A stretch of 32,000 nt of DNA. Source: Geobacter sulfurreducens PCA. Its GTDB lineage: Bacteria > Desulfobacterota > Desulfuromonadia > Geobacterales > Geobacteraceae. This document shows positions 1 to 10,686 of this stretch, one piece after another. The first letter of the stretch is position 1; the number at the start of each line of letters is the position of its first letter. Where the stretch lies: contig NC_002939.5 in NCBI RefSeq assembly GCF_000007985.2, forward strand, positions 2,430,001-2,462,000. Direction: 5' to 3'. A model generated the notes under the pieces. It searched no databases. It worked only from the letters and a program-made list of their open reading frames with translations, and had not been told where the DNA came from. Position numbers and translations under genes: made by a program.

Positions 1-154
1 GGTCCGGTTTCAAGTCGATAATTTTGCGGATACCCTCCTCGCCGTCGGTGGCATACCCGATCACCTCCACCTCGGGCATGCTTTCGAGCATCTTGGTGAT
101 GGCGCGGCGGCTGTAGGCCGAATCGTCGATGACCACGACCCTGATCTTTCTCAT
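1..154 (-). CDS. cheB: Response-regulator receiver, probable CheB methylesterase (5' end only; gene runs off the window)
   Basis: Not in the ORF track because it is truncated. My minus-strand translation from ATG 152-154 is [51 protein letters not shown], a CheB-type receiver N-terminus. Its start overlaps the cheR stop as ATGA (151-154). Only the receiver is visible, so CheB identity is inferred from the position after cheR. Confidence 0.6.
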
Positions 155-1020
155 GGCCGGCCTCCCGGAGGGAGAGGTTTCTGGTAGACCATGTCGTTCT
201 TCAGGTGCTTGAGGGCAAACGCCGTGGATATGTTCATCAGCGATTCGGAATGGCCGAGCAACAGGTAGCCTCCGTCCCGCAGGACGCGGTGGAAGGAATC
301 AATCACCGTCTTGCGGGCGGCCTGGTCGAAGTAGATGATGACGTTGCGGCAGAAGATAACGTCCATGCGGCCCAGAAGCGCGATGCGGTTGGTATCGAGA
401 AGGTTGAGGTGGCTGATGGTGACCAGTTCGCGGACCCTGTCGTTGACCCGGAACATGCCGTCCTGTTCGGTGAAGTAGCGGCGGACATATCCCTCGTCGG
501 TGACCCGGAACGATGACTTGCCGTAGACCCCCTTGCGGGCCTGCTGAATCACCCGCTGGCTGATGTCGGTTCCGATGATTTCCACGTGCCAGCCGGCAAA
601 GCCACCCATTTCCAGCAGAAGCATGGCAATGGTGTATGGCTCCTCGCCACTGGAGCAGCCGGCGCTCCAGATCCGGAGCGTCCGGTCGCCGGCCTTGGCC
701 TTGGCGTCGCGGATTTCAGGGATTATCTCCTGGGTGAAGGCTTTGAGCTGGAACGCCTCGCGGAAGAAATAGGTCTCGTTGGTGGTGAGGACATCCATGA
801 TGTCCGAGAGTTCCTGGTCCTTCTTCCGGTTGTAGCGGAGGAAATGGTAGTAGTCCCGGAACCCCGACAGCTGGTGCAGTTGCACCCTCTTGGCCAGGCG
901 CTTTTCCAGAAGATAGGCCGAGTCGCTGTCGAAGAAGAGACCGCAGTGGCTGTAAATGAGGTCCCGGATGAGGCGGAACTCCTCATCTGACATGGGTATT
1001 TCGGGCTCGAAGGTAAACAT
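151..1020 (-). CDS. cheR: Chemotaxis protein methyltransferase CheR
   Basis: 289 aa. N-terminal CheR helical domain ([16 protein letters not shown]). SAM-methyltransferase motifs [24 protein letters not shown] and [12 protein letters not shown] at 1018-1020 overlaps the upstream stop (TAATG). Confidence 0.93.
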
Positions 1021-3023
1021 TAGCGCAGACCGCCGAGCAGAGTTTGGAGTTCGTCGCGCACCAGTTCATCCTGCTCTCGCTGGAGGGCGACAGTGAGGTG
1101 CGGCATCGCCTCGCGGCCCAGAAGACGGGTCATGGCCCTGGCGAAACTGATCCGGACATCCCAGTGGGAATGGCTCAGGAGGCGATCCCGATAGGCATTC
1201 ACCCAATCGCTGCCGTCGTTCGCCAGCAGATCGATCGCCACCTTGACCACCTCTTCGTCGCTGCTATCAAGCCCACGCTTCACCAGACGCACCGCCCGAT
1301 CGCCCTCGATCTCGGAGAGCGTCTCCAGGGCCGTGATCATCACCACCCCATCGGCGGAATCGATCAGCCGCTCGATAGCGTCAAGTGACCGCTCCCCGCC
1401 GATCCGGCCAAGGCTCCTCAGGGAGGCGCACCGGACCCACGGATCCTCATCATCCAGGGACAGGATCAGGGGTTCCACCGCCTCACCCCCGCCGATCTCG
1501 CCGAGGCCCGAGGCTGCCGCGATCCTCACGTCCGGGTCTTCGTCCACCAGTGCCATCACCAGATTGGACACGCTTTCTGGGAGATGCTGATCCGCCAGGG
1601 CCGACACGGCGCTGCGCCGCACCAGGGGGTCTTCATCCTTCATCAGGAGCGCCAGACGGTCCGCATCGCCCAGGGAAGCGTAAAGCCGAACCGCGTCGTG
1701 CCGCGAACCGGTGGCTGGCGAATCGGCGAGTTTACGGGCTATGGCCCTCACTCCGGCCGGCTCGGCCGGGGCAAGGCGGATGAGGCCATTAATGGCCCCT
1801 TCGCGCACATCGTGCTCCCGGTCATCAAGCAGGGCCGCGATGGACCCCATCAGGGACAAGATACCGATCTTCCCCGCCGCCACGGCAGCAGCCTTGCGCA
1901 TCATGGGCCGGGTGCTCTCCATGGCCGCACCGAGGAGATCGGCACACCCGGTGAAGCCGAGCTCACCCCAAACCTGGATGATGATCGACTTTTCCTCGTC
2001 GTCCGCCGCAGGATAGGCGGCCGCCAGGGCCTCCATCCCCCGCTCGCCCATGGTGCGCAATCCCTGGAGACAGAGCCTTCTGAGCCGTTCGTCCCGACAT
2101 CCCTGCAGAAGGGGCAAGGCGGCGCGGGCATCGCCGATGTAACCGAGAACCCGGATCAGCGCGTCACGTACCCCCTGATCCGTGGTATCCAGTGAGCCGA
2201 GCAGTCCATCGACCACGGCAGAGCCCGTGAGCCGCGCCAAGGCATCATCAACGCACCTGGCCGCCGCGGCGCCGGCGAGACGGCCCCGCAGACGGATAAT
2301 GGCGCAGGCAGCCGCCTCCCGCACGGCACGGACACGGTCGCCGAGCCCTTCCACCAGGAGCGGTACCGCTTCGGCATCGCCCACGGCACCGAGACACTCG
2401 ATCACCGGCCGCTTCAGAATACCGTCCGACGCGTGGGGGGTAAGGATGTTCACCGGCACCGGTTCGCCGATGCGGGTCAGGGCGCCGAGGATTGAGTAGC
2501 TGAACCAGACATCGTTCTTGCCGAGGGCGGCCAGCAGCGGCGCAACAGCACGCAGATCGCCGATCTTGCCGAGGTTTTCCGCGGCAGCGGCCGAAACGTT
2601 GGGGTCCGGGTCGTCAAGGGCGTCGATCAGGGCGGGGATACTTGACCGGTCGCCGATGGTGCCAAGGATGTCGACCACAAACTTGCGGACGTCGCGGTCG
2701 TCATCCTTGAGGTGAGTGAGCAGCGCAGGCACGGCCCTCGACTCCAGCCCTTCGAGCACCTCGACGGCCGAATTGCGCAGACCGGCATTGTCCACCGACG
2801 AGAGCAGCCCGATGATCCCCTCGATGGTTCCCTCATCCGGGCACATGCCGAGCAGGAGAGACACTGCCTCTTTGCGCACCCGCCAGCTGACGTCACCCAT
2901 GGCGACGAAGAGCGGTTCGCGGGCATTGGCAAGAGGAACGGCCGCCAGGTCGAGCACGGCCCGACGCCTTGTCTCTTCGTCGGTCGATTGGAGGTCGGCA
3001 TTTACGGTTTCCAGAACAGCCAC
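1020..3023 (-). CDS. HEAT-repeat (PBS-lyase-like) protein, 667 aa
   Basis: GTG start at 3021-3023 with AAGGAG 7 nt upstream. More than 10 tandem units of the type D-x-D/E-x-x-VR-x-x-A-x-x-x-LG-x-IG, for example DDRDVRKFVVDILGTIGD, DPDPNVSAAAAENLGKIGD, DEDPDVRIAAASGLGEIGG and DEDPWVRCASLRSLGRIGG. No catalytic motif recognised. Confidence 0.85.
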   Translation of the reverse strand: MAVLETVNADLQSTDEETRRRAVLDLAAVPLANAREPLFVAMGDVSWRVRKEAVSLLLGMCPDEGTIEGIIGLLSSVDNAGLRNSAVEVLEGLESRAVPALLTHLKDDDRDVRKFVVDILGTIGDRSSIPALIDALDDPDPNVSAAAAENLGKIGDLRAVAPLLAALGKNDVWFSYSILGALTRIGEPVPVNILTPHASDGILKRPVIECLGAVGDAEAVPLLVEGLGDRVRAVREAAACAIIRLRGRLAGAAAARCVDDALARLTGSAVVDGLLGSLDTTDQGVRDALIRVLGYIGDARAALPLLQGCRDERLRRLCLQGLRTMGERGMEALAAAYPAADDEEKSIIIQVWGELGFTGCADLLGAAMESTRPMMRKAAAVAAGKIGILSLMGSIAALLDDREHDVREGAINGLIRLAPAEPAGVRAIARKLADSPATGSRHDAVRLYASLGDADRLALLMKDEDPLVRRSAVSALADQHLPESVSNLVMALVDEDPDVRIAAASGLGEIGGGEAVEPLILSLDDEDPWVRCASLRSLGRIGGERSLDAIERLIDSADGVVMITALETLSEIEGDRAVRLVKRGLDSSDEEVVKVAIDLLANDGSDWVNAYRDRLLSHSHWDVRISFARAMTRLLGREAMPHLTVALQREQDELVRDELQTLLGGLR

Positions 3024-3050: not shown

Positions 3051-4001
3051 TTACAGGCCGAGTTCTCTCCTGATCGTGCCGATGAACTCGGCGAACGCAT
3101 CATCCAGGTATGACGTTCCGGCACGGACATCGCCGGGCACTCTGTTCTCGTAGAGGGAGCGCCCTTCGGCCACGTCCTCGGCAAGCAGCTCGAAGAAGGT
3201 GCCGTTGCGGACTCCTTCCCGCACGAGGTCGCGATTATAAAGTGCGATATCCGAAACAATGAGCCGGGCAAGCCGGCGGGCCTTATGATGCTCATCGGCG
3301 AGTGTCGGTTCGTCCCCGCCATATTCGTCGTTGCGGGCGTCTCCGCAGTGTTGCGCCCCTGAGTCCCCGCCGGGAGGCGCTTGTTCTCCGGGAACCATTG
3401 TCGGGCCATCTTCCCGGGGAGGAGCTCCCCCGCGGAGCGGCGACGTTTCAGGCGTCGTGCCCGCCAGGAGCCGGCGGACGCGGGCGGGCAATTCGTCCGG
3501 AATATGGTGCTTCTCCAGATAGTCGTCCGCTCCGTGGAGCGACTCGGGAGCACGCTTGTACTTCGCCTTGTCATAAATGGAGGCGACGAGAATGATCTTG
3601 ATGTCCGCCGTGGCTGGCGAACCCTTTACCGCTTCACATATCTCGAAGGCGAACATCCCGGGGAGCGCCGCATCGAGAATAGCCACCCGGGGATGCCGCT
3701 CAAGGATTATCGCATAAGCGCCGGCACCGTCGGCCGCCTCAAGAACCTCGAACGGTTCACCGGCCAGAGCCTGTCGGACAGTATTGCGGAAAACCGAATT
3801 TTCATGGGCCACGAGAACCCGCGTCACGGTCTCCGTGGTGGACGGCTGGTGCGGGATGCGCGGGGAGGCTTTTCCCCGCACCTTGAAGACGGTGCGGCAC
3901 GAACTGCACCGCAATGTTACTCCCCCGTCCGGGATCCGAGCTCCGTCAAGCCGGTACCGCGCCTGGCAGACAGGACACCCTGCGATGATCACATCCGCCA
4001 T
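3051..4001 (-). CDS. Zinc-ribbon (MJ0042-type) protein with a receiver-like domain and an uncharacterised C-terminal domain
   Basis: The track start at 4004 is TTG. The next codon is ATG (3999-4001), which overlaps the cheW stop (TGATG). N-terminal CPVC-x19-CSSC zinc ribbon. The receiver-like core is RVLVAHENSVF...VAILDAALPGM...IILVAS...YLEKH: the phospho-Asp position is kept, but the usual N-terminal acidic DD pair reads HE. A Gly/Pro-rich linker follows. The C-terminal ~80 aa (ARRLARLIVSDIALYNRDLVREGV...) is a domain I cannot name. Confidence 0.8.
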   Translation of the reverse strand: MADVIIAGCPVCQARYRLDGARIPDGGVTLRCSSCRTVFKVRGKASPRIPHQPSTTETVTRVLVAHENSVFRNTVRQALAGEPFEVLEAADGAGAYAIILERHPRVAILDAALPGMFAFEICEAVKGSPATADIKIILVASIYDKAKYKRAPESLHGADDYLEKHHIPDELPARVRRLLAGTTPETSPLRGGAPPREDGPTMVPGEQAPPGGDSGAQHCGDARNDEYGGDEPTLADEHHKARRLARLIVSDIALYNRDLVREGVRNGTFFELLAEDVAEGRSLYENRVPGDVRAGTSYLDDAFAEFIGTIRRELGL

Positions 4002-4477
4002 CAACGCCCCGTCCCGGCAAGGCCGGCAATGGCCGACGCTTCGCGGCTCGTCAGGATGCGATCGAGATTGACGAGCATGACCAGGGTATCCCGCACCAGG
4101 CAGACACCGATCAGGTACTCGGCACTGACCCCGTCGATGGAATGGGGGGGTGGCTTGATGTCACCCACCTGCACCGTGACCACCTCGGTCACGTCATCAA
4201 CCACGAGCCCCACCAACTGCCGGCTCACCCCAACCACGAGAAGGCGGGCCTCCTCAAGCGCCACCCGCTCGGGCAATTCGAACCGCTTGCGCAGATCGAT
4301 GACCGGAATCACCATGCCCCTGAGATTGATGACTCCTTCCACAAAGGCCGGCGCCTTGGGGAGCTTCGTCAGCTTCTGGGGGCGGATGATCTCCTTGATC
4401 CGCATGATATCGGCGGCAAAGGTGGCGTCGCCGAGGCGGAAGCAGGCGAGCTGTATTTCCTGGATGTCGGTTTCCAT
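4001..4477 (-). CDS. cheW: Chemotaxis coupling protein CheW
   Basis: 158 aa, single CheW domain (FRLGDATFAADIMRIKEIIRPQKLTKLPKAPAFVEGVINLRGMVIPVIDLRKRF). AAGGA Shine-Dalgarno sequence upstream of ATG 4475-4477. Confidence 0.92.
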   Translation of the reverse strand: METDIQEIQLACFRLGDATFAADIMRIKEIIRPQKLTKLPKAPAFVEGVINLRGMVIPVIDLRKRFELPERVALEEARLLVVGVSRQLVGLVVDDVTEVVTVQVGDIKPPPHSIDGVSAEYLIGVCLVRDTLVMLVNLDRILTSREASAIAGLAGTGR

Positions 4478-4531: not shown

Positions 4532-4909
4532 TCAGGCAGCCAGAAGTCCCTGAATGATCTCGATGATCCGGGCCGACTTGAACGGCTTGGTCACGTAAGC
4601 GGAAGCACCGGCCTCCAGCCCCTTGTCACGGTCCTGGGTGCTTTTCTTGGCAGTGAGCATAACCACCGGGATGTGGCGGGTTGACGGGTCGGCCTTGATC
4701 ATCTGGCAGACCTCGAAGCCATCCATTCCCGGCAACATGATATCGAGAATGATCAGGTCGGGAGGTGTGGCTGCAATATAGTCAAGGGCGGACTTGCCGT
4801 CGGTAACCCCTGCCACGGCGTAACCGCGGGAAGACAGCAGAATGCTTTCAAGTTTGAGCAGACTCTCTTCATCTTCGACGATCAGAATCCTTTTCTTTTC
4901 CATCGGCAT
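4532..4909 (-). CDS. cheY: Single-domain response regulator (CheY-like)
   Basis: 125 aa. Canonical receiver residues are present: ILIVEDEE, IILDIMLPGMDG, VVMLTA, YVTKPF. An AGGAGG sits just upstream, and its spacing favours the in-frame ATG at 4901-4903 (MEKKRIL...) as the true start. Confidence 0.9.
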   Translation of the reverse strand: MPMEKKRILIVEDEESLLKLESILLSSRGYAVAGVTDGKSALDYIAATPPDLIILDIMLPGMDGFEVCQMIKADPSTRHIPVVMLTAKKSTQDRDKGLEAGASAYVTKPFKSARIIEIIQGLLAA

Positions 4910-4922
4910 ACCCTCCTGGGTA

Positions 4923-5681
4923 TTACATCAATGCTGAATCGAGCACCTTTTCCAGCTGAAGCAGTATGATTATTCCGCCGTCATGGCGGCCTATGCCGTT
5001 GACAAATTCACGATCCATGCCATCGAGTACGGCAGGCGGATGCTCGATGGTTGCAACCGGTATCTTGACTACCTGGGTAACCTCGTCCACCAGAAGACCG
5101 CACAATCCCTCTCCGTGCTTGACGACGACAATCCGCTCCTTCCCGCGGGCCACGGCATCGGCCAGGCCGAGACGCTCACGCAGGATGAACACGGGAATGA
5201 TGATGCCGCGCAACGACAGAACCCCGGCGACAAACGGCGGTGAATGGGGCACCTCGGTGGTCTCCCGGGGTTTGATGATCTCCTTCAACTCCATGATATC
5301 GATGCCATAGGTCTCGTCGGCCACCCGGAAGCACAGGACTTCCAGATAGGTTTCCGTTTCCCTGGCGGGTTCTGCCTCTGTATCGGAGACAAGGTCTTCC
5401 ACCAGGGCCGCCCGGCGCCCCTGGAGGATAAGCGCCAGAGGGTCGAGAACGGGCGGAGCGGCCGCCGGCACGGAAGCCGGTACCGGAAGGGCAGCATCAT
5501 CGGGAGCGAATACATCGTCGGAAAGCTCCTGGAACTCCGGGACCACCGGCGCTGAAGGTGCGTCGGCAGCGGGCCGGGACGGTTCCGGTCGGGGCTCCCG
5601 CCGCACGTCGCCCGTCGACGCGGCTCCCCCCTGCTGGCGGTCACGCTGGGCCTTTCTACGTATCTCGGCGATATCCATCAT
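4923..5681 (-). CDS. cheW: CheW-domain protein with a ~100-aa Pro/Ala-rich N-terminal extension
   Basis: 252 aa. Residues ~1-110 are low complexity (PRPEPSRPAADAPSAPVVPE...PVPASVPAAAPPVLDP). The C-terminal CheW domain reads FRVADETYGIDIMELKEIIKPRETTEVPHSPPFVAGVLSLRGIIIPVFILRERL. GAGGG Shine-Dalgarno sequence 10 nt upstream. Confidence 0.9.
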   Translation of the reverse strand: MMDIAEIRRKAQRDRQQGGAASTGDVRREPRPEPSRPAADAPSAPVVPEFQELSDDVFAPDDAALPVPASVPAAAPPVLDPLALILQGRRAALVEDLVSDTEAEPARETETYLEVLCFRVADETYGIDIMELKEIIKPRETTEVPHSPPFVAGVLSLRGIIIPVFILRERLGLADAVARGKERIVVVKHGEGLCGLLVDEVTQVVKIPVATIEHPPAVLDGMDREFVNGIGRHDGGIIILLQLEKVLDSALM

Positions 5682-5737
5682 ATCCGTTTTCCCTCGCCAT
5701 GCAAGTTACGACGGCTCCCCACGGAAGCTGTGAGCTG

Positions 5738-6541
5738 TCAGTACAGGTTCGCCTCATCCCGCAACTCCTCCACCAGAGAGGCGTCGATCCACGCCGCATC
5801 CCTGCCGTAGCCGACCAGCAAGGCATTGGTTGCCAGGATATTGATCTTGCGCGGCACGCCGCCCGAAAGTTCATGAATCCGCTGCACCGCGTCCGGGGAA
5901 AAAAGCCCCGGCGTCCCCCCGGCCACTTCGAGCCTGAAATCAATATACTCCAGAGTCTCGTCGAGGCTGAGGGGCTGAAGGTGGTAATGGAGTGCAATCC
6001 GCTGCCGCAGGGGCTCATGGACCGGGTCGGCCAGGATCTGACGCAGCTCGGGCTGTCCCATGAGGACGACGCTCATGAGGTTCTGGTCGTCCAGCTGGTA
6101 GTTGGTGAGAAGCCTGATCTCATCGAACACGTCACGGTCCGGGATGAGCTGGGCCTCGTCCACCACGATCACCGGACAGCGCCCCTCGGCATGCATCAGG
6201 TAGAGCGTTTCCGTGAGTTGTTTCAACAGTTCGTCCTTGGCCCCCGCAGGATTGTCGATCCCAAGGCTCCGGGCGATGACCCGCAGAAACTCCAGCGGCG
6301 AGAGGCGGGGGTTGAAGATGAAGCAGAAGCGGCACGCCTCGCCCATGGCATCCATGAGCGCCCGGGAAATGGTGGTCTTGCCGCAGCCGATATCGCCGGT
6401 CAACAGGGCCAGCTCCCGCTCCTCCACGGCGTACTGAAGCCGCGCAAGGGCCTCCCGGTGCCCCCGCGACAGGAAGAGGTAGCGCGGATCGGGGGTCTTG
6501 GAAAACGGCTTTTCCCGCAATCCATAGAATTCCCGGTACAT
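5738..6541 (-). CDS. AAA ATPase of the ExeA/GspA/MshM-like (AAA_22) type
   Basis: 267 aa. N-terminal FYGLREKPFSKTPDPRYLF signature typical of ExeA/MshM. Walker A is LLTGDIGCGKTT and Walker B is VIVVDEAQ. There is no C-terminal peptidoglycan-binding or membrane segment. ATG 6539-6541 abuts the cheA stop TAA 6542-6544. Confidence 0.85.
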   Translation of the reverse strand: MYREFYGLREKPFSKTPDPRYLFLSRGHREALARLQYAVEERELALLTGDIGCGKTTISRALMDAMGEACRFCFIFNPRLSPLEFLRVIARSLGIDNPAGAKDELLKQLTETLYLMHAEGRCPVIVVDEAQLIPDRDVFDEIRLLTNYQLDDQNLMSVVLMGQPELRQILADPVHEPLRQRIALHYHLQPLSLDETLEYIDFRLEVAGGTPGLFSPDAVQRIHELSGGVPRKINILATNALLVGYGRDAAWIDASLVEELRDEANLY

Positions 6542-8620
6542 TTACCCCCCGCTCCGCAGGGCTTCGCCGATGATCCCCCCCACATCCATGACGAGGATCG
6601 TCCTCTGGTCGCCCAGGTCGGCGGCGCCCGATATCCCCTTGTACCCCTTGAACATGTCGCCCAGTGACTTGATGACGATGTCCTGCTGCCCCACCAGATC
6701 GTCCACGATGATGCCCAGCCGTTTTTCGGCCACGCCGACCACTACCACATAGAAGCTGCCGGGCGGTGGAGTCTCGCGCTTGACCTTGAAAAAACGCTCC
6801 AGCCGCACCAGCGGCAGAGTGGTCTCCCGAAGCTGGTACACCTCTTTCCGTTCCACGGTAAGGATTTCCCGCTCCTCCACAATGATCGTTTCCAGCACCG
6901 ACGTGATCGGAATCGCGTAGGTCCGGTCCGCAGTGAGGACCAACAGTGCCTTGATGATGGCGAGGGTGATCGGCAGAGTTATGATGATCCGGCTCCCCTT
7001 GCCGAATTCGCTTTCGATGTCGACCATGCCCGACACGGCGGCGATGTTGCTCTTCACCACGTCCATGCCGACGCCCCGGCCCGAGAGTTCACTCACCTTG
7101 TCCGCCGTGGAAAAGCCGGGGAGGAAGATGAAGTCGAGGGCGTCCCGGTCGCTCACCCCCTCCAGGGTCTTGATGAGCCCCTTCTCCAGGGCCTTCTGCT
7201 TGACTTTCTCGATGTTGAAGCCCCGGCCGTCGTCGGCCACCTCGATGACGACGTGGTTGCCTTTCTGGTAGGAAGAAAGCCTGATCGTTCCCCGCTCGGG
7301 CTTGCCGGCGGCAATCCGTTCCTCGGGAGTTTCCAGCCCGTGATCGATGGCATTGCGGATGATGTGGACCATCGGGTCCGAAATATCCTCAATGATCAGC
7401 TTGTCCAGCTCGGTGTCTGCGCCGAACAGCTTGAGATCGACCTTTTTACCCTGCTCCCGGGACACCTTCCGAACAATGCGGGACATTTTTTCGAACAGCT
7501 GTCCCACCGGGATCATCCGGATTTCCATGACCCCCTTCTGGAGCTCGGTCAGCTTGCGGTCAAGCCCCTTTGCGGCCTTGCCCAGCTCGATGGCGAGAGA
7601 TGAGAACCCCGCCAGCCTCATGCGGGTGGTAATATCTGCAATGGTGGAGTGGGAAAGGACCAGTTCCCCCACGATGTTCATGAGTTCGTCAAGCTTCCCG
7701 ATGTCGACCCGGACCGTGCGGCTCATGCTCTTGGCAGTCAGTTGATCATCAATACCGGCCGGCATTGTGGCAGGCGTTGCCAGCACCGGAACGGACGGCA
7801 ACGGGGAGGACGGCGGCGGGGAAGCCGGGGCTGCGACGGGCAGGGCAGAGCGCTCTTCCGGCTGGGCGGCAGAGCCGTAGTGGATGATGGTGAGCCCGTC
7901 CCGGTCGAGCAGTGCGGTCAGACCTTCTTCGTCCAAGTCGGTGCCGAAGAGGATGTCGAAATCTATGAAGGATTCGGGGGAAGTGCTGGCGCTCGGCAGG
8001 GTACTGACGACCTCACCCTCTTTTTTGAGCGTGTCGGAGATTTCTCCCAGGTCCTGGTCAAAAGACATGAGACTGAACGATGCATGGATGGAAAAGATGT
8101 TCCGACGCTTTTTCACATTTTCCAACAGGCGGTGTTCTTCGTACTCCGTCAGGGAGCTGAGGACCTTCTCGGGCATGCCCAGTTCCCTGAGGGGTGAAAC
8201 TTCCTGGGCTTCCCGGGCCGAGGCGCAGGCATTGAGTCGTGATACGGCATCCTCGATTGCTGCGCTGTGATCCTCGCCGCTGCCGATGCTGCGGATAATC
8301 CCGCTCAGCAGCTCCATGGAATCGAACAGCACGTTCATGGTTTCGGGGGTGAGGGGGATTTTGCCGAGCCGCAGGGAGTCGAGCAGGTTCTCCAGGTTGT
8401 GGGACAGGGACTGGATCTCCGTAAAGCCGAACATCCCAGCCAGTCCCTTGAGAGAGTGGGAGCCACGGAAAATGGCGTTCAGGAGATCAGGGTCGCATTC
8501 ACCGCTGTCGGCACAGTCGCTGAGAGTGACCAGGTCGGTATTGAGCTTCTCGACAATCTCTTCGGCCTCGGCCAGAAAATCATCAACGGCCCTGCCTGAT
8601 GCGTCGTGCGTGTTGGTCAT
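6542..8620 (-). CDS. cheA: Chemotaxis histidine kinase CheA
   Basis: Hpt/P1 domain (FRGSHSLKGLAGMFGF), dimerisation region, HATPase (IRNAIDHGLE, DDGRGF, GRGVGMDVV), and a C-terminal CheW-like P5 domain. There is no fused receiver. The track start at 8632 is GTG. The in-frame ATG at 8618-8620 has GGAGG 5 nt upstream, so I prefer it (692 aa). Confidence 0.93.
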   Translation of the reverse strand: MTNTHDASGRAVDDFLAEAEEIVEKLNTDLVTLSDCADSGECDPDLLNAIFRGSHSLKGLAGMFGFTEIQSLSHNLENLLDSLRLGKIPLTPETMNVLFDSMELLSGIIRSIGSGEDHSAAIEDAVSRLNACASAREAQEVSPLRELGMPEKVLSSLTEYEEHRLLENVKKRRNIFSIHASFSLMSFDQDLGEISDTLKKEGEVVSTLPSASTSPESFIDFDILFGTDLDEEGLTALLDRDGLTIIHYGSAAQPEERSALPVAAPASPPPSSPLPSVPVLATPATMPAGIDDQLTAKSMSRTVRVDIGKLDELMNIVGELVLSHSTIADITTRMRLAGFSSLAIELGKAAKGLDRKLTELQKGVMEIRMIPVGQLFEKMSRIVRKVSREQGKKVDLKLFGADTELDKLIIEDISDPMVHIIRNAIDHGLETPEERIAAGKPERGTIRLSSYQKGNHVVIEVADDGRGFNIEKVKQKALEKGLIKTLEGVSDRDALDFIFLPGFSTADKVSELSGRGVGMDVVKSNIAAVSGMVDIESEFGKGSRIIITLPITLAIIKALLVLTADRTYAIPITSVLETIIVEEREILTVERKEVYQLRETTLPLVRLERFFKVKRETPPPGSFYVVVVGVAEKRLGIIVDDLVGQQDIVIKSLGDMFKGYKGISGAADLGDQRTILVMDVGGIIGEALRSGG

Positions 8621-8638
8621 GGAACCCTCCACCTCTAC

Positions 8639-9004
8639 TCAGGAGGTGTACTTGACGATCAGATCCTGGAGACGGGCCGGGTCGAACGGCTTGACGAGAT
8701 ATTCGTTCGCCCCGAGCGACAGCCCCTTTTCCCGGTCCCGCTCACTCCCTTCGGTTGAAATGATAAAGAGCGGGATGTGCCTGTAATTGTCGCTGGTGCG
8801 GACAAAGCTCACCAGCTCAAGCCCGTTGATGTCGGGCATGTTGATATCGGTGATGATCAGGTCGAGCCGCTCGCGGGGAAGCAGGCGCAACGCCTCGAAT
8901 CCGCTGGAGGCCTCGACGACCTCGAACCCATCCAGCGACTGGATGGTGGCCACCAGCATCGATCGCATGGTGGCAGAGTCTTCGGCAATCAGAATCCTCT
9001 TCAC
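8639..9004 (-). CDS. cheY: Single-domain response regulator (CheY-like)
   Basis: 121 aa: ILIAEDSATMR, LIITDINMPDINGLE, FIISTE, YLVKPF. The GTG start at 9002-9004 overlaps the upstream stop (GTGA). Confidence 0.9.
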   Translation of the reverse strand: MKRILIAEDSATMRSMLVATIQSLDGFEVVEASSGFEALRLLPRERLDLIITDINMPDINGLELVSFVRTSDNYRHIPLFIISTEGSERDREKGLSLGANEYLVKPFDPARLQDLIVKYTS

Positions 9005-10686
9005 GTTCCCCCCTGGACACTTTCGAGAAGCTTGCGCTCCAGAAGCGCCTTTTCCATGGCCACACCGGCCTGGGAGAGAAAAATCTCCAGGGCTTCGGTG
9101 CCGCCGATCGGCTTTTTGTCGGGCAGATTGTCGCCGTAGAGGATGGCGACGACCCGCCCCTCGCTCACAATGGGGCCGACAAAAACCTCGTCGGGGATCT
9201 CCGGCCCCAGGTGCTCGAACAGGTATCGGTTCCAGGCGGCCGGCTCAGGCCTCACCACGGCTGGATGCTTGGCTTCAATGATCGCGCTGAAGAGGGATTC
9301 TCCGTTACGCGGAATTCGCAGTCTTCTCACTCGCGCGTCGGCGACTCCCCCGGTCTCCTCGATGCCGAACTGGCCAAGCCCGACGATCTCGTCGCGCCTC
9401 ACCATGAAAATGATCGCCCGATTCATGAACTCGGCGGCAAAACGGAGGACCATCAAGGTAACGCCTCCGCCGAGGGCGGGATTGGACAGCTCTTCGAGCA
9501 TCCCCCGCAGCAGCGCTATGCCGGTGCTCGGTTCCACGGACTCGACCTCGCCGTTCAGGTCGTCGCCGAGTTCCAGGCGCAACTCATGCCCCAGATTCAC
9601 CATGTCGCCCGTGGCAACGGCGAGTTCGCCGGCCCGGAGTCTCCAAAGCACATCCAGCAGATCACGGCAGAAACGGTCGGCTTCCCGGGAGTCACCCATC
9701 TGGGCTCTCCGCGGCTTGATGAGGTGGGGATACCCCAGCGCCCCGACCCGGCGTTCGGCGTCACTGTTATGGTAGTCGGACATGACCAGGAGCCGGAGGT
9801 CGGGAAAATTGTTCCGCACGAGCTCCACGAGTTCGAGACCGCCCAGAATACCCGTGCCGTCCATGCGCGGCATGATGAGATCCGCAAGAACCACCGGCCG
9901 CTTTCCCTTGCGATAGAGGGAATCGATCCGGATCAGCGCATCCTCGCTTCGCTCCTGCTGATAAACCCGGTAGCCTCCCTGCTCCAGCGCCGCAGCAAGC
10001 GTCTCCCGGGTCAGATCATCGTCGTCGACAAGGACAAGCGACACCGGCTCTTCGGCCTTTGCCGCCGCGTCCGGCTGCAAGCGGGTCTGGCCGGAAGCAG
10101 GGGGTTCCTCCATGCCGGACAGGTGCGGGACCGCTGCCTGAGGCGCAACAGCGGGAGGGAGGTTTCCGCGATGCCGCTGCTCGTCGATGAGCCGCGCGCC
10201 TTCCATGGCCAGGAACTGAGGATTCAGCCCCTGGTCGAGCATGAACTGCATCGGGTCCATCCGGATGTTGTCGACCGCTTCCACGTTCTCCTGAAGCTCG
10301 AAGTCGAAGGTTCCCTCGACCCAGGCGAACAGCGAGTAGACAACTTTTTCGAACTGCTCCCGGACCACCTCGTCGATGGCTGCCGCCGCGACCCCGTACT
10401 GGCGGATCAGGATCGAGCCGAGCCGCTCCTGGAATCCTTCCCGTTCCTGAAGGGCAAGGGCGCCGCGGAGGGTCGCCAGGTCGATGAGCCCCTTGCGGAT
10501 CAGCAGCTCGCCGAGGCTTTCCTGGAAACTGCTCGACGACGCCCGGATCACTTTGCCCTGGCGGAAAGCGATCTCGCCCAGTCGTCCCCTGCTGTTGACC
10601 CGCAAGACACCCGATTTACGGGAAAGGCTCACAATCTGGAGAATTTCCCCCAGGCCCAGATCTTCCAGGTTGCCGACGAGACTCAT
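9001..10686 (-). CDS. DUF4388 - receiver - GAF-like three-domain response regulator
   Basis: 561 aa. N-terminal DUF4388-type motif (GNLEDLGLGEILQIVSLSRKSGVLRV). Central canonical receiver (LVLVDDDDLTRE, VVLADLIMPRMDG, LLVMSD, HLIKP). The C-terminal ~170 aa look GAF-like (RAIIFMVRRDEIVGLGQFG...GRVVAILYGDN). First gene of the che operon, with AGGA upstream of the ATG. Confidence 0.8.
   Translation of the reverse strand: MSLVGNLEDLGLGEILQIVSLSRKSGVLRVNSRGRLGEIAFRQGKVIRASSSSFQESLGELLIRKGLIDLATLRGALALQEREGFQERLGSILIRQYGVAAAAIDEVVREQFEKVVYSLFAWVEGTFDFELQENVEAVDNIRMDPMQFMLDQGLNPQFLAMEGARLIDEQRHRGNLPPAVAPQAAVPHLSGMEEPPASGQTRLQPDAAAKAEEPVSLVLVDDDDLTRETLAAALEQGGYRVYQQERSEDALIRIDSLYRKGKRPVVLADLIMPRMDGTGILGGLELVELVRNNFPDLRLLVMSDYHNSDAERRVGALGYPHLIKPRRAQMGDSREADRFCRDLLDVLWRLRAGELAVATGDMVNLGHELRLELGDDLNGEVESVEPSTGIALLRGMLEELSNPALGGGVTLMVLRFAAEFMNRAIIFMVRRDEIVGLGQFGIEETGGVADARVRRLRIPRNGESLFSAIIEAKHPAVVRPEPAAWNRYLFEHLGPEIPDEVFVGPIVSEGRVVAILYGDNLPDKKPIGGTEALEIFLSQAGVAMEKALLERKLLESVQGGT

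Follow-up and report, generated by a model that had tools for sequence, protein, structure and literature searches.

Chemosensory arrays are among the best-understood protein lattices of bacteria, and to our knowledge the only ATPases that act on them are ParA-like ones. AAA+ proteins of the Cdc6/Orc1, TnsC and MuB fold are ATP-dependent oligomerising switches, and a short soluble ExeA-like ATPase, MshM, is known from the MSHA pilus of Vibrio, its gene lying in the msh operon beside those for the secretin MshL and the TPR protein MshN. In the che operon of Vibrio the gene for the ATPase ParC is followed by that for ParP, in which a proline-rich linker joins an N-terminal ParC-binding domain to a CheW-like domain (PMC5706961). 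ExeA/GspA takes part in assembling the secretin of type II secretion in Aeromonas and Vibrio, and the ATPase domain of ExeA is needed both to form a complex with ExeB and to multimerise (PMC4098917); the domain content of the partner GspB varies greatly, whereas its gene stays beside gspA (PMC9239104). Here we analysed a stretch of 32,000 nucleotides from Geobacter sulfurreducens PCA (contig NC_002939.5, positions 2,430,001 to 2,462,000 of the forward strand; hereafter the window), in which the gene of an ExeA-family AAA+ ATPase lies between cheA and a cheW in a chemosensory operon (Table 1). This ATPase belongs to a clade of the family whose genes follow cheA, and in the CheW encoded after it a long linker ends N-terminally in a conserved peptide.

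The encoded ATPase is identical at 267 of 267 residues to the proteins AAR35597.1 and ADI84979.1 of G. sulfurreducens PCA and KN400, named "ATPase, putative", and its gene can be assigned to GSU2221 by sequence identity together with gene order, since the order in the window agrees with that of GSU2224 to GSU2217, the cluster of the electrode sensing network (Esn). The first-pass annotation, made from the letters alone, had described an ATPase of the ExeA/GspA/MshM type with its N-terminal signature, Walker A GCGKT and Walker B VVDEAQ, without the C-terminal periplasmic peptidoglycan-binding part, starting directly at the cheA stop and followed by a cheW. This description is borne out in full. 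All three motifs are present in the translation, and Pfam AAA_22 matches residues 41-170 (E = 5.9e-21). The 267 residues hold the AAA+ base plus lid only, with no transmembrane, peptidoglycan-binding or other domain in the Pfam matches or in the structure model. The junction on the minus strand reads TAAATG, with the cheA TAA at 6542-6544 and the ATPase ATG at 6539-6541, and the gene for the 252-amino-acid CheW begins after a gap of 56 nucleotides. The closest NCBIfam model, TIGR03015 (ExeA-like XrtA/PEP-CTERM ATPase), aligns end to end at 240 bits against a cut-off of 324.5.

In an alignment of 149 relatives (alignment A2, che-linked clade), F13 of the signature is invariant and F5, Y6, G7 and P12 are kept in at least 90% of the sequences. 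G49, G52, G54, K55 and T56 of Walker A and E129 of Walker B are all invariant, as are Q163 at the end of beta4, R181 before beta5 and R231 in the GGVPR motif at the start of the lid helix, and D128 of Walker B is kept in at least 90%. Because Walker A, the Walker B glutamate, Q163, R181 and R231 are invariant, the ATPase looks catalytically intact, active and dependent on oligomerisation; by their position in the model, Q163 would be sensor 1, R181 the candidate arginine finger and R231 sensor 2. The AlphaFold2 (AF2) model built from the 149-sequence alignment has a mean predicted local distance difference test score (pLDDT) of 93.9 and a predicted template modelling (TM) score of 0.87, and shows a classical AAA+ alpha/beta base with a helical lid; it was used in place of a single-sequence prediction that was unusable (pLDDT 52.6). 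The solved structures nearest to the model are Cdc6/Orc1, TnsC and MuB, followed by RuvB/RuvBL, with query-normalised TM scores of 0.6-0.74 and identities of 13-23%; for Cdc6/Orc1, TnsC and MuB the matches have E = 5e-10 to 3e-8 at TM scores of 0.64-0.74. No close relative has been solved, as a sequence search of the PDB returned nothing significant and its best meaningful match was MuB (E = 0.044). With Cdc6/Orc1, TnsC and MuB the ATPase shares the two-domain arrangement of base and lid and a sensor-2 arginine in a GxPR-like motif; besides the low identity, it differs from them in lacking a winged-helix domain and any DNA-related or transposon context. By these fold neighbours, it would be an AAA+ protein of the "switch/matchmaker" type rather than an unfoldase.

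Relatives of the ATPase amount to 31,111 representative proteins at E <= 0.001, of which 8,197 reach E <= 1e-30 with alignments spanning residues 1-260; the names given to them at source are "ExeA family" or "general secretion pathway protein A". Most of those that are close (42-48% identity) are proteins of 530-900 amino acids with the ATPase at the N-terminus as in ExeA/GspA, and a minority of 265-287 amino acids cluster with the Geobacter proteins, separate from the long forms. Gene neighbourhoods were read in three independent samples, namely a genome scan that started from the ATPase (66 loci), the contexts of short-form profile matches, and a metagenome scan with a CheA profile (80 loci). 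The cheA gene was found directly upstream of the ATPase gene in all 28 loci whose ATPases are at least about 50% identical, from Desulfuromonadota, Nitrospirota and metagenomes. Systematic che linkage of orthologues had been set beforehand as a test by the first-pass annotation. In the genome scan it was present in 14 of 14 loci at 52% identity or above, from Geobacter, Geomonas, Desulfuromonas, other Desulfuromonadales, three Nitrospirota and one unclassified bacterium. By contrast, CheA, CheW or CheR was encoded within 10 kb in none of the 52 loci at 45% identity or below, nearly all of which encode longer proteins and which come from Sneathiella, Maridesulfovibrio, Acidobacteriota, Myxococcota, Planctomycetia, Verrucomicrobiota and others. 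The context look-ups gave the order CheY-CheA-ATPase-CheW-MCP(40H-type sensor)-CheW-HEAT-CheR-CheB in Nitrospirota and on another contig, where MCP is the methyl-accepting chemotaxis protein, or receptor. A complete deltaproteobacterial genome has PATAN-REC-CheY-CheA-ATPase-CheW-CheW-MCP-ZnR-REC-HEAT-CheR-CheB (REC, receiver domain; ZnR, zinc ribbon), and a further contig has a bare CheY-CheA-ATPase unit. In the metagenome scan, the ATPase gene follows 9 of the 12 top-scoring cheA genes and none of 68 more distant ones. At the junctions read in 18 loci, the cheA stop mostly abuts or overlaps the ATPase start, with a gap of up to 50 nucleotides in two.

A phylogeny had also been proposed at the outset, and neighbour-joining places the 28 che-linked proteins together with the short representatives in a single clade. 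This clade excludes every non-che protein in 44 of 60 bootstraps, computed on rough distances, a figure that becomes 59 of 60 when a single short protein from a 2.4-kb contig with unreadable context is admitted. Judged by sequence comparison and gene order, the ATPase represents a distinct short-form ExeA/GspA clade and an integral component of the "40H / beta-group / Esn" clusters, coupled to cheA. This distribution bears on the reading that the ATPase is a passenger, that is, an AAA+ protein from a mobile element (TniB/MuB/TnsC-like), or an ATPase with a role in defence, that lies in the operon by chance. Its fold does resemble those of TnsC and MuB (TM 0.68-0.70), and PADLOC gives weak matches (best E = 4e-6), but no transposase, integrase or defence partner is found nearby in the window, Pfam TniB does not match, the catalytic residues are strongly constrained, and the gene occupies the identical position over two phyla and metagenomes in a single clade. 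Membership among the TniB/MuB/TnsC transposition regulators was rejected on this basis, the similarity being one of fold alone; the TniB-like protein beside a transposase, which the first-pass annotation had named as the finding that would speak against its view, has no counterpart in the window. Because the synteny is conserved, the passenger reading is effectively refuted, and we give it next to no credence.

The CheW encoded after the che-linked ATPase opens with M-[DN]-[ILM]-[AV]-[EK]-I-R-[KQ]-K-[AL] in 21 of 21 cases. Peptide and linker together form a low-complexity N-terminal extension of 45-171 amino acids in which P, A, E, D, S, G, K and T abound. No other part of these proteins is as conserved as the peptide, whose mean pairwise identity of 0.60 compares with 0.36 in the CheW domain and 0.25 in the linker. 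Of the 12 closest CheA loci, 3 are sister clusters that share the layout CheY-CheA-CheW-CheW-HEAT but have no ATPase; in their first CheW only 16-19 residues precede the domain, with no linker and no motif. The extension is present in 21 of 21 CheWs that accompany the ATPase and in none of the sister clusters, and it is therefore the one feature that tracks the ATPase. The first CheWs of the sister clusters (L079, L080 and L081) begin with the short, basic N-termini MAALIRARGEK, VNKAIAQRKVEG and MSDLIRRQPSG. Since the CheW next to it bears a conserved peptide at the N-terminal end of a flexible linker, the ATPase probably acts on the receptor array itself.

N-terminal peptides also occur next to ExeA-like ATPases outside che clusters. 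Among the 52 non-che loci there are at least 29 in which a gene adjoining the ATPase gene, mostly downstream and sometimes upstream, encodes a protein with the N-terminus [IV]x[DE]AL[KR][KR]A; neighbours of this kind lie at loci L014-L031, L032, L034, L037, L038, L057-L063 and L066, and examples of the N-terminus are MSIISEALKKAQ, MGKVYDALRRAEE, MSLIMDALKKAQ, MSKIAKALKKAQ and MSKLLKAVEKAK. The bodies of these neighbours are mutually unrelated and include ParA/AAA_31 (BY-kinase-like), TPR, T2SSB/T2SSC-like and small membrane proteins. When the motif was scanned against 4,083 open reading frames (ORFs), the 19 best, each scoring above 20, were all neighbours of ExeA-like ATPases, and in ten neighbour proteins that were scanned the N-terminal peptide is covered by no Pfam model. 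The peptide may thus be the handle by which ExeA-family ATPases hold their partners. A wider proposal would make ExeA-family ATPases general readers of N-terminal peptides, in which a short conserved helix with this motif or a variant of it recruits adjacent partners with swapped bodies (GspB-like secretin scaffolds, BY-kinase-like, TPR or CheW); the che pair would then be a hitherto unrecognised, ATP-driven and ParA-independent system for array assembly or positioning, required for Esn function and found in Desulfuromonadota and Nitrospirota; we regard this generalisation as somewhat doubtful.

Published genetic data are consistent with a function of the ATPase in the Esn pathway. In the transposon sequencing (Tn-seq) experiment of Chan et al. 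2017 on electrodes, the log2 ratios for insertions are -2.8 for GSU2222, -2.1 for GSU2221 and -2.4 for GSU2220, and the rest of the cluster genes are missing from the table of values at or below -2 (PMC5585712). According to the same authors, the transposon reads through and polar effects are largely avoided, and esn mutants fail at electrode colonisation (PMC5585712). GSU2221 is likely a missing component of the electrode-sensing pathway that controls anode colonisation, because it lies between esnC and esnB and has the same Tn-seq phenotype. In the work of Tran et al. 2008 the window cluster is che cluster 5, of the "beta-group"; they noted that such clusters hold genes of unknown function and reported, as unpublished work, a role of the beta-group cluster in the extracellular matrix (PMC2577667).

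On this evidence we propose that the ATPase and the CheW encoded immediately downstream are an ExeA/ExeB-type pair with a CheW as the partner, which would tether an ATP-dependent assembly or remodelling factor to the 40H receptor array; we put the probability of this reading at roughly 0.45. The C-terminal domain of the tethered CheW would enter the MCP-CheA-CheW lattice, and its N-terminal peptide, at the tip of the long flexible linker, would recruit the ATPase. ATP-dependent oligomerisation of the ATPase would then nucleate, cluster, place, stabilise or remodel the array of class-40H receptors, EsnA included. Peptide binding, oligomerisation and any effect on the array are predictions of this scheme. 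The ATPase with its tethered CheW would be a functional counterpart of Vibrio ParC/ParP built on an AAA+ instead of a ParA fold. As in ParC/ParP, an ATPase gene in a che operon precedes that of a CheW-like protein with an N-terminal element, a long linker and a C-terminal CheW-type domain (PMC5706961). This adaptor architecture and gene order are seen in 21 of 21 tethered CheWs, and the role proposed here, in array formation or placement, is that of ParC/ParP and of PpfA/TlpT of Rhodobacter sphaeroides, by an analogy of architecture only. In contrast to ParC and PpfA, GSU2221 is an AAA+ protein of the Cdc6/Orc1/TnsC/MuB type and not of the ParA/MinD type, with no match to CbiA, ParA or AAA_31 in the Pfam scan, and its type occurs in Desulfuromonadota and Nitrospirota with 40H receptors and the non-flagellar Esn pathway. 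An array assembly or positioning ATPase of a non-ParA fold was one of two roles first suggested for this protein: the fold stands, and the array role is favoured by the ParP-like tether, absent from the ATPase-less sister clusters.

Several observations weigh against the proposed pair. The ATPase-less comparison rests on three sister loci only, and their short N-termini might represent the tether peptide in a degenerate or ancestral state; if they are degenerate, the peptide may be older than the ATPase. In one subgroup of Nitrospirota (L010, L011 and L070) CheY-CheA-ATPase stands alone with no CheW gene next, and the invariant neighbour is therefore CheA and not the tethered CheW. The peptide of the che-linked CheWs shares the constant register x-I-x-E-[AI]-[LR]-[KR]-K-A-Q with the family peptide, but the similarity is statistically weak. 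A log-odds position-specific scoring matrix trained on the non-che partners does not single out the che peptide, whose median score of -5.3 is reached by 6.8% of the background, and with a BLOSUM profile the median che score is reached by 2.8% of background N-termini and the best by 0.4%. A shared origin of the two peptides is therefore hypothetical and is taken here as a lead. On the genetic side, the published work deleted and named EsnA to EsnD only, and the phenotype of GSU2221 comes from transposon insertions (PMC5585712).

The invariance of CheA opens another possibility, namely that the ATPase works directly on CheA as its regulator or co-factor, a switch set by its nucleotide that would bind P1, the P2-like domain or P4 and gate autophosphorylation or phosphotransfer or feed in the energy state of the cell, with the tethered CheW being secondary. 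CheA is the sole neighbour kept in 28 of 28 loci, with most of the junctions that were read abutting or overlapping, the Nitrospirota subgroup retains the CheY-CheA-ATPase unit only, and AAA+ proteins of similar fold are ATP-dependent switches and not unfoldases. However, the feature that tracks the ATPase is the CheW extension, whereas no feature of CheA was found to do so: the P2-like domain (LTEYEEHRL) was considered as an ATPase-specific feature and rejected, being equally present in the ATPase-less sister CheAs. We consider CheA regulation fairly unlikely as the primary function, and it can coexist with a tether to the array.

The other role first suggested was an output linking the pathway to a secretin or pilus machine, and in a broader form the ATPase would couple the pathway to an envelope machine encoded elsewhere, such as a secretin, a type IV pilus or an exopolysaccharide (EPS)/PEP-CTERM-type export system. 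Relatives do act in secretin assembly (ExeA/GspA; PMC4098917, PMC9239104), others adjoin BY-kinase-like, TPR and GspB/C-like proteins, and the closest NCBIfam model is that of the XrtA/PEP-CTERM-associated ATPase. The unpublished control of the matrix by the beta-group cluster (PMC2577667) and the failure of esn mutants at electrode colonisation (PMC5585712) point in the same direction. The resemblance to ExeA/GspA covers the AAA_22-type AAA+ domain, the FYGLxxxPF signature, an identity of 42-48% to the long forms, and the habit of working with an adjacent partner, as many members lie beside a protein with a conserved N-terminal peptide. GSU2221 differs in having no transmembrane segment, no cysteine-peptidase-like domain and no peptidoglycan-binding domain (PF01471), in belonging to a separate short-form clade where the long forms have 530-900 amino acids, and in having a CheW as partner in a chemosensory operon, with no gspB or secretin gene nearby. 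No type II secretion system (T2SS), secretin, pilus or EPS export gene adjoins the ATPase in any of the 28 che-linked loci, where the neighbours are always CheA and usually CheW, and the secretin or pilus output has thus found no support. Like MshM and the XrtA/PEP-CTERM ATPase, GSU2221 is a short soluble ExeA-like ATPase, and the three are of similar length. Membership in TIGR03015 was nevertheless rejected, given a score below the cut-off and no exosortase or EPS context, and the ten short-form relatives that were scored all fall below the cut-off as well (197-239 bits). The likeness to MshM is by description, no MshM sequence having been compared, and GSU2221 lies in a che operon and not in a pilus operon. 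The ATPase has no membrane or periplasmic domain, and PATAN-REC, Zn-ribbon-REC and CheY are more obvious outputs of the cluster. A role in envelope output is thus quite improbable.

The minus-strand genes of the cluster form one tight operon with several overlapping or abutting junctions, in the order PATAN(DUF4388)-REC, CheY, CheA, ATPase, CheW (252 amino acids), REC, CheW (158 amino acids), Zn-ribbon-REC, HEAT-repeat protein and CheR. Its sole promoter-like site lies ahead of the first gene (10763-10735, minus strand), and neither a promoter-like nor a terminator-like site was found in the gaps separating cheA, the ATPase gene and cheW. Since the stop and start codons abut, the ATPase may be expressed stoichiometrically with the kinase core, as the first-pass annotation had also supposed. 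Among the che-linked loci, a CheY gene lies upstream of cheA in those reaching that far, and the HEAT-repeat gene is kept in most clusters that extend far enough. The remaining genes of the window are housekeeping and sugar-nucleotide genes (der, era, rnc, holB, metG, spoT, rpoZ, gmk and glycosyltransferases), and the window holds no transposase, secretin, T2SS, pilus or exosortase gene.

Table 1 Features of the ATPase, its tethered CheW and the surrounding che operon, in window coordinates. Published names are from PMC5585712.
Feature	Published name	Position	Strand	Remarks
ExeA-family AAA+ ATPase ORF	GSU2221, "ATPase"	5738..6541	-	267 amino acids, ATG start, cytoplasmic only
ExeA-family N-terminal signature FYGLREKPF		6503..6529	-	residues 5-13 (EFYGLREKPF = 4-13)
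Walker A GDIGCGKT		6374..6397	-	residues 49-56, from translation
Walker B VVDEAQ		6149..6166	-	residues 126-131, from translation
CheW with N-terminal extension	GSU2220, cheW40H-1 (esnB)	4923..5681	-	252 amino acids; Pfam CheW residues 114-249, E = 2.4e-36
Conserved N-terminal CheW peptide MMDIAEIRRKAQ		5646..5681	-	proposed ATPase docking motif
Low-complexity Pro/Ala/acidic linker, peptide to CheW domain		5343..5645	-	
CheA kinase	GSU2222, cheA (esnC)	6542..8632	-	Pfam Hpt, H-kinase_dim, HATPase_c, CheW
CheY-like response regulator	GSU2223, cheY40H-1	8639..9004	-	Pfam Response_reg
PATAN(DUF4388)-REC protein, first cluster gene		9001..10686	-	Pfam DUF4388 + Response_reg
Single-domain response regulator	GSU2219, cheY40H-2	4532..4909	-	
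Second, ordinary CheW	GSU2218, cheW40H-2	4001..4477	-	158 amino acids
Zn-ribbon + REC protein	GSU2217, cheY40H-3	3051..4004	-	
HEAT-repeat protein		1020..3023	-	Pfam HEAT_2, E = 1.3e-71
CheR methyltransferase		151..1020	-	

Further observations concern individual genes of these clusters. Residues 58-111 of the PATAN-REC protein (window 10354-10515, minus strand) give a near-threshold match to NF053729, the MshE-type cyclic-di-GMP-binding motif (34.1 bits against a cut-off of 38); this near-match within DUF4388 is of note as the Esn pathway is tied to the GGDEF response regulator EsnD. CheA has a strongly conserved domain of about 80 amino acids between P1 and P3 to which Pfam is blind (residues ~155-235; window 7928-8170, minus strand), with the motif LTEYEEHRL...FD..L.E....K..GE[VIL]ISTLP, and it is probably a divergent P2/CheY-binding domain. 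In GSU2217 an MJ0042-type zinc ribbon (Zn_ribbon_4) is fused to the N-terminal side of the receiver; the protein is found in many such clusters and is a candidate pathway output. Nitrospirota-type clusters hold an MCP gene within the operon (L067 11459-14356; L071 3815-6664), its product combining a Mcp40H-20-type sensor, HAMP, MCP signalling and phosphonate-binding (periplasmic binding protein-like) domains, whereas the Geobacter versions are without an mcp gene. In L010, L011 and L070 the gene next to the ATPase gene is on the opposite strand, and in L070 (10846-13435) the genes that follow on that strand code for a Ras/Arf-like GTPase and a GAF-GGDEF protein. An antisense ORF of 369 amino acids (window 5558-6667, plus strand) spans the whole ATPase gene and is most likely spurious, as is common in G+C-rich DNA.

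The existence and position of the gene were already known from its annotation as "ExeA family protein" and from one Tn-seq table. The literature searched contained no study of the GSU2221 ATPase besides that table, and a comparative paper on Geobacter che clusters and a survey of CheW-like domains leave the ATPase unmentioned. Undescribed in this literature are the che-linked ExeA-family clade, fixed after cheA in at least two phyla, the co-occurrence of the ATPase with a tethered CheW, and the shared N-terminal peptide in partners beside ExeA-family ATPases.

In summary, GSU2221 is well supported as a candidate non-ParA ATPase of chemosensory arrays, on which it would act by a mechanism that would follow the scheme proposed above. 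The predictions can be tested directly, G. sulfurreducens being genetically tractable. If the proposal is true, a soluble two-protein system of the ExeA type would offer a tractable handle on how the ATPase domain of this family engages its partners, and an AAA+ component with its own tethered CheW would represent a second, mechanistically different route by which bacteria build, place or remodel chemosensory arrays.

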